Of a stretch of 64,000 nucleotides of DNA, positions 13,075 to 61,657 are shown piece by piece. How positions within the stretch are numbered: position 1 is the stretch's first letter; each line of letters opens with the position of its first letter. The translations under genes and the position numbers were made by a program. The DNA comes from Chloroflexota bacterium (GTDB lineage: Bacteria; Chloroflexota; UBA11872; VXOZ01), in NCBI GenBank assembly GCA_963663275.1, contig OY760183.1, forward strand, positions 128,001 to 192,000, read 5' to 3'. Under the pieces are notes generated by a model, which saw nothing but the letters and a program-made list of their open reading frames with translations, had not been told where the DNA came from and ran no database searches.

Positions 13075-13233
13075 CAATGCTGCCGCATTAATCCCGTGCC
13101 CAAACCGTTCGCCCTGAGCCTGGTCGAAGGGTGAGCGGCTTGGGCACGGAGTCGTCCGTCTCAACAACGTAGGGGCACGGCATGCCGTGCCCCTACGTTG
13201 TTGCTCGCTAATGTGCGGTGCGGGGCGCCATCG
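13075..13233. mobile_element. MITE-C copy (TIR CAATGC...) with 11-bp target duplication
   Basis: CCTCCTCACCT|CAATGCTGCCGCA...GCGCCATCG|CCCCCTCACCC; cargo is two REP hairpins; right TIR degenerate. Confidence 0.6.
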
Positions 13234-13438: not shown

Positions 13439-14311
13439 CTACCCGAAGCGTCCGGTGATGTAGGCCTCGGTGCGTTCGTCGGTGGGGTTGGTGAAGAGGT
13501 CCGTGGTGGGGCCGAACTCGATCAGCTTGCCCCGCGCCCTGTCGTCGGAGAGCATGAAAGCGGTGTAGTCCGAGACGCGGGCGGCCTGCTGCATGTTGTG
13601 GGTCACGATGATGATCGTGTAGTCCTTGGCCAGTTCCCGCATCAGGTCTTCGATCTTCAGGGTGGCGATCGGGTCCAGCGCCGAGCACGGCTCGTCCATC
13701 AGCAGCACTTCCGGCGAAACCGCGATGGCCCGGGCGATGCAGAGGCGCTGCTGCTGGCCGCCGGAAAGCGCCAGGCCGCTCTGCTTCAGGTCCTGCTTCA
13801 CCTCGTCCCACAGGGCCGCGCCGCGCAGGGCCGCTTCCACCAGCTCGTCCTCATCCGCCTGGTAGCCGTTGATGCGCGCGCCAAAGAGGATGTTGTCGCG
13901 GATGGAGCGCGGGAACGGGTTGGGTTTCTGGAAGACCATGCCGATGCGCCGCCGCACTTCCACCGGGTCGATCGTGTCCGCATAGATGTTGGCGCCTTCC
14001 AGCAGCACGTCGCCCGCGGTACGCACGCCGCCGATGAGTTCGTTCATGCGGTTTATGCCCCGCAGGAGCGTGCTCTTGCCGCAGCCGGAGGGGCCGATCA
14101 CGGCCGTAATCTTCTTGCGCGGGAACTTGATGGTAACGTCCGTCACCGCGCGGAAGTCGCCGTACCACAGGCTGAAGTCGTTCACTTCCACCGCGGGATC
14201 GGGAATCGCCGCGGGAGCGTCTTGGGGCAACTCAACGGGGATCGAATGCTCTATCACAGTTTCGACCGCACTCTCTTCTGTCCTGGTCTTGACGAAGGGT
14301 ACCTTTATCAT
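13439..14311 (-). CDS. pstB: Phosphate ABC transporter ATP-binding protein
   Basis: [47 protein letters not shown]. Confidence 0.95.
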
Positions 14312-19015: not shown

Positions 19016-19390
19016 GTAGGGGCACGACATGTCGTGCCCCTACCGGGGGTTGGCGGATGTCGTGCCCCTACGGGCGCAATGTCCGCATCGTACCCCCACC
19101 GCCGCAAACCGCTCCACGTATCCCCATCAGCCCAATGCGCGCCCCGCACGCGGGGGCTTGTCCCCAATGCCTTCGCCAAGAACTAATGAGCATTGTACTA
19201 CCCGTTCGTGCTGAGCCTGTCGAAGTATGAACGGGTAGTACAATGCGCCAACACCAACCCGCCGTTCACCTTTCGACAGGCTCAAGGCGAACGGCTGCGC
19301 GGAGGCCTGTCCCCATCGGTTTCCCTACACCGTAGCGCGGGGGCTTGTCCCCCGCCTCCTGGCGCAGGTTACAAACCTACGCTACCGGAT
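19016..19390. repeat. REP cluster including a truncated MITE-C (from 19165) inserted in a REP loop
   Basis: GTAGGGGCACGACATGTCGTGCCCCTAC; GGGCTTGTCCC|CAATGCC followed by a CCGTTCGTGCTGAGC REP pair. Confidence 0.8.
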
Positions 19391-20537: not shown

Positions 20538-20709
20538 GTTCCGCTTGCCATAGACCTGATGGGAGAGACTCATCCATATTCGAACAGAATACCAAGCCCG
20601 CCATGTTGCACGAAAGCGGTGTGATTGGGCAAGATAATTCTAGCACGGCGGTTCTTGGCGCGCGCAGTGCGGAGCCGGGGCAAACGAACAGAGGCGAGAG
20701 AATGGAATT

Positions 20710-21402
20710 ATGGAAATTCAAGTCATCGGCCTGATACTTGCGGCGTACGTCTTGGGCGCGATTCCCTTCGTCTACCTGCTGGGACGGATTTCCGGGGTCG
20801 ATTTGCGGGACGAGGGCAGCCGCAACGTCGGCGGCACCAATCTCTTTCGCACGGTGGGGCCGCTCTCGGGCGTGCTGGGCGCGGTGCTGGACATTGGCAA
20901 GGGCGTGGCGCCGGTGCTGGCGGCGCGGGCGCTCGACTTCAACGACGGCGTGGCGGGTCTGGCGGCAATCGCGGCGGTCGTGGGCCAGTGCTGGCCGGTA
21001 TTCCTCCGCTTTCACGGCGGCCGCGGCATCTCGGTGGTGGGCGGCGCCGTCATCGCCTTCTCGCCCTTGACCTTCTTCTTGGCCGTCCTGCCCGCCCTGG
21101 GCGGCTTAGGGGCCTACTTCATCATGCTGCGCCGCCGGCCGCGGGACGCCGCAGCAGACGCGGCGCCAACCGGAGGCAACAGCCGCACCGTGCCCCTCTT
21201 CATGATGATCTCGATTGTGGCCCTGCCGGTCGTCGCTGCCGTCCTGGGCGAGCCGTTTTCGATTGTGCTCGCGGCGGCGGCGCTCTCGCTGCTCGTCATC
21301 TTGCGCCGGCTTACCGCCGGCCTGCGCCAGGACCGCGGCTCACCCATTCCGCTCCACACGCGCCTGCGCAACCGCTTCCTCTACGACCGCGCGCAAGTAT
21401 AG
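20710..21402 (+). CDS. plsY: Glycerol-3-phosphate acyltransferase PlsY
   Basis: GAIPF, GSRNVGGTN, DIGKG, F.RFHGGRG. Confidence 0.85.
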   Translation: MEIQVIGLILAAYVLGAIPFVYLLGRISGVDLRDEGSRNVGGTNLFRTVGPLSGVLGAVLDIGKGVAPVLAARALDFNDGVAGLAAIAAVVGQCWPVFLRFHGGRGISVVGGAVIAFSPLTFFLAVLPALGGLGAYFIMLRRRPRDAAADAAPTGGNSRTVPLFMMISIVALPVVAAVLGEPFSIVLAAAALSLLVILRRLTAGLRQDRGSPIPLHTRLRNRFLYDRAQV

Positions 21403-21464
21403 TCAACGCCGTGGGCAGCCGATAGACTCTCTCTCTGGGCAGCCGATAAACTCCCTCTCCCTGG

Positions 21465-21654
21465 GCTGACAGGAGTAGGCACTCTACATCCGCATTCTCG
21501 TGTCATTCCGAGCGGAGCGCAGCGGAGAGTCGAACCCTGTTCGCGGAATCCAGGGCAGAGAACCGCAAATCCAGCATCTCTAGATTCCTCGCTGCGCTCC
21601 GCTCCACTCGGAATGACACGTTAAGCCGATAATCAATTGTCTACCCTTGTCAAC
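21465..21654. mobile_element. MITE-B copy
   Basis: GCTGACAGGAGTAGGC...GTCTACCCTTGTCAAC inside a CTCCCTCTCC/GGAGAGGGG hairpin. Confidence 0.75.
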
Positions 21655-21745
21655 TCTCCTCGAGGAGAGGGGAAGCACGTAGCGCGGGGGCTTGTCCCCC
21701 GCCTGTGGCAGGGTGAGGCGCTACCGTAGCGCAGGGGCTTGTTGC

Positions 21746-21920
21746 CAATGCTTTCGCATTTAAGGGTGGATAGTCACGAGTATGAGCCTCTACACGGCAT
21801 GTCACGTGGTGTAGGGGCACGACATGTCGTGCCCCTACACCACGTTGACGACCGGTCAAGCGCATTAACAGCGCGGATTCGCCGTGGTTGCCTAAGTCAG
21901 AAGCTAATGCGACAGCATTG
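21746..21920. mobile_element. MITE-C copy inserted into a GTAG REP
   Basis: GGGCTTGTTGC|CAATGCTTTCGCA...TGCGACAGCATTG|GCGCTTGTCCC; alignable with copies at 45427 and 61488. Confidence 0.85.
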
Positions 21921-22034
21921 GCGCTTGTCCCCCGCCGGCGTCACTTACTGCGAATGGGCGCCGCACTGCCCGTTCGTGCTGAGCCCGTCGAAGCATGAAC
22001 GGGTAGTGCGGCGCTCATCAGGCTGCGGCTTGTC

Positions 22035-23756
22035 TCAATATCCCATTGCCGACGACGTCGGATAATACGGATCCGCCGCGCCGATCAGGGTTTCCCCCTG
22101 CCGCTGGATTGCCACCGGACTGGCAAAGTAGCGCGGCAGGAAGGCCTCCTCCGCCGCGACGACGGCGTGGCCGCGCCGGGCCAGTTCCTCCCGCACGGCG
22201 GGGTCGATGCGAACGCTCACAATCGGGCGCAGGGTGCTGCAATCGATGCGGGGCGCGTCGATCGCGGCTTGCGCGTCCATCTCGAAATCCACCACGTTCA
22301 TGGCGAGTTGGGTCACGGTGTTGATGATGCGCCGCCCGCCGGACGCGCCCAAGGCCGCCAGCGCCTTGCCGCCGCGTTCCAGCACGATTGGGCACATGTT
22401 GTTCAGCGGCTTCTTGCCGCCTTCCGTCGAGTTGCTCGTGCCCGGCTCCGGGTTGTACCACATCATGCCGTTGTTCAGCAGCACGCCGGTGCCCGGCGCG
22501 ACCACCCGCGAACCCCAAGCCGAGAGCAGCGTCTGGGTGAGCGCCACGGCGTTGCCCGCGCCGTCCATCACCGCCAGGTGCGTGGTGGACTCCGCGTTGG
22601 AGCCGGGCAGCGGGCGGGACTCCGGCGCGCCGTCGCCCGCCTGATACCGCCAGGGATCCCCCGGCCCGCGCTCCGCGCGCGCCTGCCGGGCATCGATCGT
22701 CCCCGCCAGCGACGCGGCATAGTCCTTGGCAAGCAAGCCGTCCAGCGGCACGTGCACGCGCGCGGGGTCGGCCATGTAGGCGAAGCGGTCGGCAAACGCC
22801 TGGCCGGAGGCCTCGATGAAGGTGTGCAGGTAGTCGGCCGCGTTGTGGCCCATCGCGCCTACGTCGAAGTTTTCCAGGATGTTCAGAGTCTCCATCAGGG
22901 TGGGCGCGCCGGTGCCGCCCTTCATGCCGATCACGTTCGCGCCCCGGTATGCGCCCAGGACGGAATCCGCGTGCACGGTCGCTTCATACTGCGCCAGGTC
23001 TTCGATAGAGAGGATGCCGCCGTTCTCCCGCACGTGGCGGGCGATGCGTTCGCCCAGCGCGCCGCCGTAGAGCGCCGCCGGGCCTTCCGCCGCCAGCGTG
23101 CGCAGCGTGGCGGCCAGTTCAGGCTGGCGCAGCCTGCCCGCCGCGCCCGGCTCCATGGCGAACGGCAGGCGATGGGGATAGCCGTTGCTGAGATAGGTGG
23201 CCGCCGTGGCGGGAAACCGGTTCAGCAAGGCCAAGTCTTGCGCCTGCCACATGGTCTCGAACCAGGAGAGCGCAAAGCCTTCCTCGGCCAGCCGCGCGGC
23301 GGGCGCGACGGCGCGATCCAGGCCAATCGTGCCAAGACTGTCCAGCGCCGCCGCCATGCCCGCCACCATGCCCGGTATGGCGATGGACCGGTAACCGTAG
23401 ATGTTGGCGTTGTCCTTGACCAAGCGCCAGCCGAAGAGTTCGCTGTCGTAGCCCTCCACCAGTTCCCACATGTCGGGCGTTGCCGCTTGCGGCGCTTGCA
23501 TGGGAAAAGCGACCACGACCTGCTGTTGGGTCTCCTGGAGGAAGACGGACATGTAGCCGCCGCCGCCCACGCCGCTCATGGGCGGTTCCACCACGCCGGC
23601 GGCAAAGGCGGTGGCCACCGCGGCGTCCACCGCGTTGCCGCCGGCCTGGAGGATTTCCAGGCCGGCCTGGGCGGCCAGGCGGTGCTTGGCCGCCACCATG
23701 CCCCCTGTCGCCGTGGCTGCGTGTACGCGCGCTTCCCATTGCGTTTCCGTGGCCAT
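22035..23756 (-). CDS. ggt: Gamma-glutamyltransferase family Ntn hydrolase
   Basis: GGNAVDAAVA, SGVGGGG, STTH autoprocessing Thr, GVLLNNGM, GASGG. Confidence 0.9.
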   Translation of the reverse strand: MATETQWEARVHAATATGGMVAAKHRLAAQAGLEILQAGGNAVDAAVATAFAAGVVEPPMSGVGGGGYMSVFLQETQQQVVVAFPMQAPQAATPDMWELVEGYDSELFGWRLVKDNANIYGYRSIAIPGMVAGMAAALDSLGTIGLDRAVAPAARLAEEGFALSWFETMWQAQDLALLNRFPATAATYLSNGYPHRLPFAMEPGAAGRLRQPELAATLRTLAAEGPAALYGGALGERIARHVRENGGILSIEDLAQYEATVHADSVLGAYRGANVIGMKGGTGAPTLMETLNILENFDVGAMGHNAADYLHTFIEASGQAFADRFAYMADPARVHVPLDGLLAKDYAASLAGTIDARQARAERGPGDPWRYQAGDGAPESRPLPGSNAESTTHLAVMDGAGNAVALTQTLLSAWGSRVVAPGTGVLLNNGMMWYNPEPGTSNSTEGGKKPLNNMCPIVLERGGKALAALGASGGRRIINTVTQLAMNVVDFEMDAQAAIDAPRIDCSTLRPIVSVRIDPAVREELARRGHAVVAAEEAFLPRYFASPVAIQRQGETLIGAADPYYPTSSAMGY

Positions 23757-27471: not shown

Positions 27472-27675
27472 CAATGCCGTGGCCTAGAACTGGTGAGCAC
27501 GGTACTATCCGTTCGTGCTGAGCCCGTCGAAGTACGAACGGATAGTACCGTGCGCCGTAACCGACCCGCCGTTCACCTTTCGACAAGCTCAAGGCGAACG
27601 GCTGTGTGCATGCTCATCCATTCCTCAATATTCGGAGGGCGGCGTCATGCAGACCAATGCAACGCGACACCTTTG
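27472..27675. mobile_element. MITE-C copy (CCGTTCG REP-pair cargo) inserted into a GTAG REP
   Basis: GGGCCTGTCCT|CAATGCCGTGGC...GCGACACCTTTG|GCGCTTGTCCC. Confidence 0.8.
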
Positions 27676-45426: not shown

Positions 45427-45601
45427 CAATGCTGTCGCATTTGGGAGTGGAGAGTAACGAATGTGAGCCTCTGCTCGGCTTGTCACAAGGTGTAGGGGCA
45501 CGACATGTCGTGCCCCTACACCTTGTTGCAGACAGGCCAAGCGCATTAGCAGCGCGGATTCGCCATACTTGCCTGAGTCGGAAGCTAAAGCGGCAGCATT
45601 G
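45427..45601. mobile_element. MITE-C copy
   Basis: CAATGCTGTCGCA...GCGGCAGCATTG, alignable over its length with 21746-21920. Confidence 0.85.
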
Positions 45602-48724: not shown

Positions 48725-49250
48725 CCACGCGGACAGGCCCGCGCGCTACGGTTTACCGGTAGGGGCAGGCCTCGTGCCTGCCCTAATCGCGAGACGGCAG
48801 TCATACCCACGCTCGCGCAGGTTACAAACCTGCGCTACCGGAGGGGGGCAAGCCCCAATGTTGAGCCATAGAGCGTACGAGCACTGTACTACCCGTTCGT
48901 GCTGAGCCTGTCGAAGTATGAACGGGTAGTACAGCGCGCCGCAACCGACCCGCCGTTCACCTTTCGACAGGCTCAAGGCGAACGGCGGGTTGGAGGATCA
49001 TCCTCTTTTGAAGAATTGAAGAGACAGCGGTCTGCGCTACCGGAAGGGGCGTTGCGCTACGGGAGACGACATCGCGCCGCCGGAGGCGGGGGACAAGCCC
49101 CCGCGCTACGGCTTACCGGTAGGGGCAGGCCTTGTGCCTGCCCTAGTCGCGAGACGGCAGTCATGCCCTCGCTCGCGCAGGTTGCAAACCTACGCTACCG
49201 GAGGGGGCGTCGCGCCGCCGGAGGCGGGGGACAAGCCCCCGCGCTACGTC
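48725..49250. repeat. REP mosaic: two ~120-bp direct repeats flanking a truncated MITE-C (from 48856)
   Basis: GCTACGG.TTACCGGTAGGGGCAGGCC...AAACCT.CGCTACCGGAGGGGG occurs twice; GGGGCAAGCCC|CAATGTTG. Confidence 0.8.
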
Positions 49251-61487: not shown

Positions 61488-61657
61488 CAAAGCCGTCGCA
61501 TTAACTTCTGACTCAGGTAACCACGGCGAATCCGCGCTCTTAATGCGCTTCACCTGGGGTCAACGCGGTGTAGGGGCACGACATGTCGTGCCCCTACACC
61601 GCGTGCCAAGCCGTGTAGAGGCTCTTAGTCGTGACCTCCACTTTTGCGACAGCATTG
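61488..61657. mobile_element. MITE-C copy (reverse orientation) in a degenerate GTAG REP
   Basis: GTAGCGCGG-AGGCTTATGCT|CAAAGCCGTCGCA...TGCGACAGCATTG|AAACTCGTACC. Confidence 0.8.

Follow-up and report, generated by a model that had tools for sequence, protein, structure and literature searches.

A 175-bp type-II MITE at the apex of a REP hairpin in a Chloroflexota bacterium, probably mobilized by an IS4-family transposase encoded elsewhere in the genome

The element at positions 21746-21920 of the 64-kb stretch of Chloroflexota DNA analyzed here (the window; G000:C1:128001-192000, from a single-contig genome of 3.53 Mb with 64% G+C) is, with a probability that we put at about 0.88, an old type-II MITE copy of an IS4-family insertion sequence (IS), inserted at the apex of a REP hairpin and moved by a transposase that is encoded elsewhere in the genome. 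The element and its immediate setting are as follows (window coordinates):

21679..21702, plus strand: intact, empty REP1 hairpin (GTAGCGCGGGGGCTTGTCCCCCGC), an example of an unoccupied target, 40 bp upstream
21728..21745, plus strand: left part of the occupied REP1, whose last 11 bp, 21735-21745 (GGGCTTGTTGC), form the left-hand copy of the target duplication
21746..21920, plus strand: 175-bp non-autonomous MITE of the hairpin type, with its left end at 21746-21763 and its right end at 21903-21920
21811..21838, no strand assigned: REP2 perfect palindrome GTAGGGGCACGACATGTCGTGCCCCTAC, at the centre of the MITE
21921..21937, plus strand: remainder of the REP1 hairpin, with the right-hand duplicate (21921-21931, GCGCTTGTCCC) followed by the rest of the stem, starting with CCGCC

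The 175-bp MITE is bounded by CAATGCTKTCGCATT inverted ends, with CAATGCTTTCGCATT as its first and AATGCGACAGCATTG as its last letters, and excision of 21746-21920 together with one of the flanking 11-mers, which are identical at 8 of 11 positions, rebuilds the REP1 hairpin. When compared to a 15-nt end consensus derived from the right end of the IS described below, the right end of the MITE matches at 15/15 and the left end at 14/15 positions, and the match to the IS ends extends across approximately 17 nt. With IS-matching inverted ends, small size, no transposase gene, multiple copies in the genome and target duplications, the element shows the features by which a MITE is recognized. As single-stranded DNA it is predicted to fold into one long hairpin (z = -6.4), and, when scanned against Rfam, neither the MITE nor the DNA around it nor the IS gave a match that reached the gathering score. 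With regard to the two genes that flank the MITE (window positions 20700-23000), their spacing is 13 to 47 bp in 12/12 listed congeners, as compared to approximately 630 bp here; the extra DNA is composed of repeats only (a T2 hairpin, REP1, the MITE, and a REP3 hairpin), and the whole repeat block of approximately 600 bp is absent between the same two genes in these 12 congeners. Repeat insertion explains why intergenic regions in this genome are swollen, the region described here being one example.

A candidate autonomous partner for the MITE was found by a genome scan with the end motif, which identified four end pairs that are exactly 1194 bp apart, all located outside the window and each inserted in REP1 between perfect 11-bp repeats (contig coordinates):

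381634-382827: IS copy 1
1063162-1064355: IS copy 2
1098012-1099205: IS copy 3
3018017-3019210: IS copy 4

In pairwise comparisons, these copies are 99.3-99.7% alike (0-8 differing positions), and each comprises one 367-aa ORF, which is free of frameshifts and preceded by an AAGGAG site. The encoded transposase matches Pfam DDE_Tnp_1 (PF01609) and, at 156.9 bits, passes the IS4 equivalog model of NCBIfam (NF033592, transpos_IS4_1; cut-off 115). Its DDE triad (D122/D190/E298) has spacers of 67 and 107 residues, which fall within the IS4-family criterion D(60-110)D(100-150)E given in PMC2266710, and the YREK motif, Y(2)R(3)E(6)K, is present as YRKRWQIELFFRWLK (residues 291-305, i.e., Y291, R294, E298, and K305). 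No variation at any of these six residues (D122, D190, E298, Y291, R294, and K305) was seen among about 26 aligned homologues that show 47-55% identity. When an AlphaFold model of the transposase (pLDDT 84) was used in a Foldseek search, the best five matches were Tn5 transposase entries (top match 1MUH, E = 1.9e-8, TM 0.52); a PDB sequence search with the transposase returned nothing useful.

The ends of the IS, CAATGTTGTCGCATTAAAGT and CAATGCTGTCGCATTAACCG, carry AATG at positions 2-5 and TTA at positions 14-16, and hence show the signature -AATR--------WTW. According to Table 1 of De Palmenaer, Siguier & Mahillon (2008, PMC2266710), the IS4 subgroup is characterized by ends of this type, by duplications of 10-13 bp and by a length of 1400-1650 bp. 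The IS described here resembles this subgroup in its single-ORF DDE transposase with YREK motif, its -AATR--------WTW ends (with a relaxed first base) and its 11-bp duplication, whereas it differs in its length of 1194 bp, which lies below the size range of the subgroup, in its 367-aa transposase and in its Chloroflexota host. An original prediction, made from the letters of the window, had proposed IS4-subgroup ends with a target duplication of 10-13 bp and had suggested a search for a transposase with matching ends; the IS4-family IS found here in four copies bears out this family assignment. The only other DDE_Tnp_1 gene found in the genome is part of a single-copy IS at G000:C1:1441991-1443235, which has a 333-aa frame and GGAGACCTTTGCGTAAC-type ends and is unrelated to the CAATG family; it was considered as a mobilizer of the MITEs and rejected because its ends differ.

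What the original prediction had called 'MITE-C' represents one end family, which we split by interior into a hairpin type (approximately 175 bp, with the REP2 palindrome inside; this type includes 21746-21920), a pair type (approximately 204 bp), which encloses a CCGTTCG... hairpin pair, and a doublet type (162 or 177 bp), which encloses REP1 and REP5. In the whole genome, the 15-nt end motif was found 278 times at a threshold of at most 3 mismatches, as compared to 40 times in a reversed-genome control, and 87 of the 110 ends with at most 1 mismatch adjoin a recognized target 11-mer; in the window, GGGCTTGTCCC with at most 1 mismatch is present 27 times versus 2.1 expected. Using mutually nearest end pairs as the census unit, we obtained 68 pairs genome-wide, among which a few long ones are probably chance pairings. 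When these pairs were clustered by interior, as had been proposed along with the original prediction, ends and interiors recurred together as families:

Doublet type: 46 pairs, 30 with perfect 11/11 duplications
Hairpin type: 7 pairs, 2 with perfect 11/11 duplications
IS: 4 pairs, 4 with perfect 11/11 duplications
Pair type: 3 pairs, 0 with perfect 11/11 duplications
Small groups: 8 pairs, 0 with perfect 11/11 duplications

Most pairs thus retain the 11-bp duplication, which is perfect in 36 of the 68 (the four IS copies and 32 MITE pairs) and matches at at least 9/11 positions in 45. Exact copying was also seen for rare variant 11-mers at single sites (GGGCTCATCCC, GGGGACGGCCC, CCCACAAGGGG, GGGACGAGCCC, and CCCCCTCACCC), which indicates that these are true target duplications, and the duplication length is 11, given that there is no extension where the terminal base is T rather than C or where the flank is not REP1; this length corresponds to about one helical turn, in line with the IS4 family. 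Because the 21746 copy lies in a dense REP cluster and tandem REP arrays exist in the genome, the flanking 11-mers could alternatively be viewed as remnants of recombination or slippage between neighbouring REP1 copies; this explanation is made extremely improbable by the exact duplication of the rare variants, by the asymmetric loop, which has the same orientation on both flanks, and by the reconstruction of a single canonical hairpin in most sites from which the element and one copy of the duplication were removed, as detailed below.

REP1, the target of most insertions, is represented by 567 intact copies (at most 3 mismatches) in the genome, including 25 in the window, versus 0 in the control, and about 80 occupied copies exist beyond the 567 intact ones. 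The four IS copies all break REP1 at one same point, and the elements insert in both orientations relative to REP1. Among 45 well-preserved sites that were rebuilt by removal of the element and one repeat, 41 form, in our own reading of the table, a hairpin centred on the duplication, which extends to the whole genome the original claim of insertion into the central 11 bp of a REP. Positions at distances 3-9 from the centre of the rebuilt sites pair at a frequency of 0.87-0.93 and those at distances 1-2 at approximately 0; the duplicated 11 bp hence comprise a 5-nt loop flanked on either side by the three uppermost stem pairs. The remaining 4 of the 45 sites lie in the non-palindromic T2 repeat (GGGTGAGGGGG), beside a GGGAGAGGG hairpin; T2 is a minor second target, and its use as a target indicates that a hairpin is not strictly required. 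One 162-bp MITE, at G000:C1:2729029-2729190, occupies the apex of a different hairpin, GGGCGCCC-ACAAG-GGGCGCCC, where the 11-mer CCCACAAGGGG is duplicated without mismatch; this hairpin begins at the stop codon (TAG) of the gene upstream and combines the REP1 loop with an inverted stem polarity. As to whether the transposase reads the sequence of its target or a cruciform or hairpin shape, the data are split, with this CCC-ACAAG-GGG hairpin hit and the palindromic targets of related ISs favouring shape and the non-palindromic T2 favouring sequence.

Given the observed 11-bp duplications, the shared ends and the centring on the REP1 apex, the Tn5/Tn10-type IS4 transposases provide a model for how 21746-21920 would have moved. 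By analogy with these enzymes, a transposase dimer would bind the two ends of 17-18 bp, the element would be excised via hairpin intermediates, and both 3' ends would be joined to the target at points 11 bp apart on its two strands, placed symmetrically around the apex of REP1, such that subsequent gap repair would yield the 11-bp duplication. A two-fold symmetric complex of this kind fits a two-fold symmetric target, i.e., GGG-N5-CCC inside GCGG...CCGC. On the same analogy, any DNA between two such ends may be moved in trans, and mobility in trans would account for the coexistence of unrelated interiors (the host REP2, the REP3 pair, and the REP1+REP5 doublet).

REP1 itself is associated with a second type of transposase. 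The genome's sole Y1 (RAYT-type) transposase gene, located at 383050-383358 (PF01797, 43.7 bits versus a cut-off of 23), is flanked by 3 REP1 copies upstream and 4 inverted REP1 copies downstream (G000:C1:382828-383900). GTAG, the tag of RAYT-associated REPs, has been reported in repeats of Chloroflexi, specifically Thermomicrobium roseum (Di Nocera et al. 2013, PMC3733652). As in these GTAG REP/RAYT systems, REP1, REP2, and REP5 share a GTAG start and REP1 is arranged in inverted fashion around the Y1 gene; the sections of PMC3733652 considered treat the REPs themselves and cover IS targeting by citation only, and neither the IS nor the MITEs found here are described in them. REP1 is thus a RAYT-associated REP by its inverted flanking of the Y1 gene, its high copy number, and its GTAG tag. 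The four inverted REP1 copies downstream of the RAYT gene lie in tandem units of approximately 115 bp, and IS copy 1 occupies the first of the REP1 copies upstream of this gene.

To our knowledge, HUH/Y1 single-strand transposases make no target duplications of the type described above. The presence of REP1 around the RAYT gene, the GTAG-tagged hairpins in the MITE interiors and the folding of the element as one long hairpin would all be compatible with REP/BIME-type composites that were spread by the RAYT (Y1/HUH) transposase, with the CAATG ends as a mere REP-associated motif. We nevertheless regard this explanation as very unlikely, as 11-bp target duplications are exact, also at sites other than REPs, a DDE transposase gene lies between these same ends in four copies, and approximately 480 REP1 copies are without such ends beside them. 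The other copies in the window are listed below (window coordinates):

45427..45601, plus strand: second hairpin-type MITE, in a CCCCCTCACCC repeat (T2)
61488..61657, minus strand: third hairpin-type MITE, in opposite orientation, in a decayed REP1
27472..27675, plus strand: complete 204-bp pair-type MITE in REP1, with flanks GGGCCTGTCCT / GCGCTTGTCCC
19165..19303, plus strand: right-truncated pair-type MITE whose left end abuts GGGCTTGTCCC, without a right inverted end
48856..49030, plus strand: right-truncated pair-type MITE that follows the reverse-complement target GGGGCAAGCCC, without a right inverted end
13075..13233, plus strand: 159-bp singleton that contains both kinds of hairpin; its left end is good and its right end has decayed, with flanks CCTCCTCACCT / CCCCCTCACCC

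In all seven window copies, including 21746-21920, a CAATG-type end is found directly behind the target, as had been stated in the original prediction. The target just before the ends at 19165 and 27472 is GGGCTTGTCCC or GGGCCTGTCCT, and a decayed form precedes the end at 61488; the copies at 13075 and 45427, for which use of another repeat family had been claimed, both do lie in the CCCCCTCACCC repeat. A recurrence of the 11-mer at the right end of complete copies held up in part; it is evident at 21746 and weak at 45427 (4/11 in register, or 7/11 with a 1-nt shift by hand count) and at 61488 (5/11). With regard to interiors, the GTAGGGGCACGAC hairpin is present in the 21746, 45427, and 61488 copies, the CCGTTCGTGCTGAGC pair in the 19165, 27472, and 48856 copies, and both in the 13075 copy, a hybrid for which no second full-length copy was found in the genome. 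No doublet-type MITE was found within the 64-kb window.

These interiors are as originally listed; their description as interchangeable cargo between the same ends fared less well, since the MITEs fall into separate families and no sign of cargo exchange inside one lineage was found among the MITE families of the genome. When the MITE types were compared to the IS and to each other, only the terminal 17-18 bp (CAATGYTGTCGCATTAA) were found to be common, with nothing shared beyond. Type-II MITEs, as described by Minnick (2024, PMC10969869), have only inverted ends in common with an IS, and the elements analyzed here appear to be better described as at least three separate type-II MITE families than as one family with interchangeable cargo. 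Since the similarity stops at 17-18 bp, an origin of the MITEs by internal deletion of the IS was rejected, and the MITEs need not descend from this particular IS. The interiors consist of host REP units that belong to far larger and mostly free repeat families, each of which gave 0-1 matches in the reversed-genome control; copy numbers in the genome are 567 for REP1, 374 for REP5, 277 for T2, 179 for REP3a, and 134 for REP2, most of the latter being outside MITEs. A repeated, independent origin of end-bounded units from REP-rich DNA would fit these sequence comparisons. The doublet-type interior was matched 88 times, with both ends present in 44 cases, one end in 26 and no end in 18; the doublets without ends are MITEs in decay or, alternatively, the stock from which the cargo was taken.

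The doublet type, which is the largest family, has an intact REP1 immediately inside one end, so that each copy of the 162-bp family brings a new landing site and receives nested insertions. An intact REP1 directly behind a MITE end accounts for 83 of the 567 intact copies (approximately 15%), and 9 of 80 occupied REP1 copies are themselves MITE-borne in this way; the two proportions do not differ (Fisher p = 0.5), which indicates that MITE-borne REP1 is targeted about as often as free REP1. A nested case is provided by IS copy 4, which sits in a MITE-borne REP1. In addition, tandem arrays with a 38-bp period, in which the unit is composed of an 18-bp IS end and the left part of REP1, were observed, for example, at 1042714-1042807, 2045918, 2349873, 968740-968960, and 673340-673520; we read the 38-bp units as the result of nested same-orientation insertions into MITE-borne REP1. 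All 9/9 nested junctions are on the minus strand, a bias that may reflect chance or a threshold effect, as decayed plus-strand arrays are present at 968762-968940. A further tandem array, with a 101-bp period, is located at 2896484-2896798 and consists of hairpin-type right halves, each of them right after a REP2 left half (..GGGGCACGACATGTCG followed directly by CAATG); it looks as if the REP2 centre had also been hit here and the unit then amplified. Use of a MITE-borne REP as a landing site has a precedent that involves IS1111, a member of the IS110 family. QMITE2 of Coxiella burnetii is a MITE containing a GTAG REP that is used as an IS landing site (PMC10969869); the 162-bp MITE likewise contains a REP that serves as an IS landing site but, unlike in QMITE2, where the landing IS is IS1111, this REP is the target of the transposase family that matches the MITE's own ends, which leads to self-nesting.

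Pairwise identity, at 99.3-99.7% among IS copies, has a median of 92.6% (up to 100%) in the 162-bp doublet type and of 82% in the hairpin type (range 74-91%; 7 paired full copies), and is 66-88% in the pair type. Because identity falls from the IS and the doublet type to the hairpin and pair types, the window appears to contain only older families of end-bounded MITEs, and the IS copies present today may not be the actual mover of the 21746-21920 copy, whose duplication matches at 8/11 positions and whose family is considerably less uniform than the IS. An alternative is that the mover of this MITE, which would still belong to the same end family, was not today's 1194-bp IS but an earlier or since lost relative, in which case the window copies would be fossils that the present transposase may no longer recognize. 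In addition to the lower identities, this explanation is favoured by the decayed duplications of the hairpin and pair types, by pair-type ends that depart from the IS ends at several positions, and by the distribution in the genus, in which 16/17 genomes yielded the doublet-type MITE or its end+REP1 unit (abundant only in the genome studied here and in a second genome, G011) and only 2/17 the transposase, with degraded pieces only in G011. The near-complete match of both ends of the window copy to the consensus and the two hairpin-type copies that still have perfect 11/11 duplications (2092928 and 1297267) argue against it, and since IS lineages last by turnover, young IS copies do not date their lineage; we thus consider movement by a lost relative unlikely and retain movement of the MITE by a transposase encoded in this genome as the preferred reading.

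Relatives of the IS, with transposases that are 37-80% identical (37-57% in the more distant ones), were found in other Chloroflexota and in one Rubrobacteraceae MAG. These relatives are 1202-1458 bp long and have kept CAATGNTGTCGCAT-type ends; 7/9 show anchored 9-12-bp duplications, and about 5/9, as judged by eye, lie in palindromes, one of which is a perfect 28-bp GTAG palindrome. In an empty-site comparison with the closest genome, G011, flanking genes were 73-88% alike and the intergenic DNA had diverged beyond alignment; at one locus, only the MITE itself matched. Two public runs labelled sponge metagenome (X1 and X2) contain contigs that are 95-99% alike to parts of G000:C1:380001-399500, and one 1209-nt contig of run X1 represents the IS alone, with 7 differences. 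Contigs in the four public runs used are short and end at repeats, and among the joints listed none spans the IS or the MITE of this region (positions 1634-2827 and 13987-14148, respectively, of L055, which is G000:C1:380001-399500); neither G011 nor these runs yielded an exact pair of filled and empty sites.

ISs that target REPs are known from five families, including IS4 (Tobes & Pareja 2006, PMC1525189), and 'spectacular apparent insertion specificity' is noted in PMC2266710 for target arms of some IS4-subgroup members. The IS described here fits the REP-targeting ISs and is an instance of the type 1 association of Tobes & Pareja. As reported for ISRm22, an IS4-family element of Sinorhizobium meliloti, every IS copy is found at one fixed point of the REP, on the axis of the palindrome, and, as with ISRm22, REP halves had to be distinguished from the ends of the IS (PMC1525189); by contrast, ISRm22 makes 6-bp repeats, as compared to the 11-bp repeats made by the IS here. 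In addition, the word 'MITE' is absent from the text of PMC1525189, whereas in the genome studied here MITEs are far more numerous than the IS and one of their families contains the target itself. A full-text literature search with REP1 and the end motifs had an unrelated Pseudomonas REP paper as its only match, and neither this IS, nor its ends, nor any MITE in Thermomicrobia turned up in our search of the literature.

The system described here belongs to a known kind of selfish DNA, of which it is a clean new example, and does not amount to a novel type of mobile element; the self-carried target is a modest twist on known REP-targeting ISs. A more far-reaching, and in our view doubtful, possibility is a parasitic network of three layers, in which RAYT would maintain REP1, the IS4-type transposase would use the REP1 apex as a safe landing pad, perhaps by reading its shape, and the 162-bp MITE would have captured a REP1+REP5 doublet; if this were true, a DDE transposase would spread RAYT's own repeats and make its own new landing pads. 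More generally, the genome provides a complete and countable case of a REP-seeking IS4-family element, including the transposase, its ends, the exact geometry of the hairpin cut, three dependent MITE families and the RAYT of the target, from a Chloroflexota lineage for which the literature searched contained no MITE or IS of this kind. As a simple system, it also lends itself to the question of whether the sequence or the shape of a hairpin is what a Tn5-like transposase reads.
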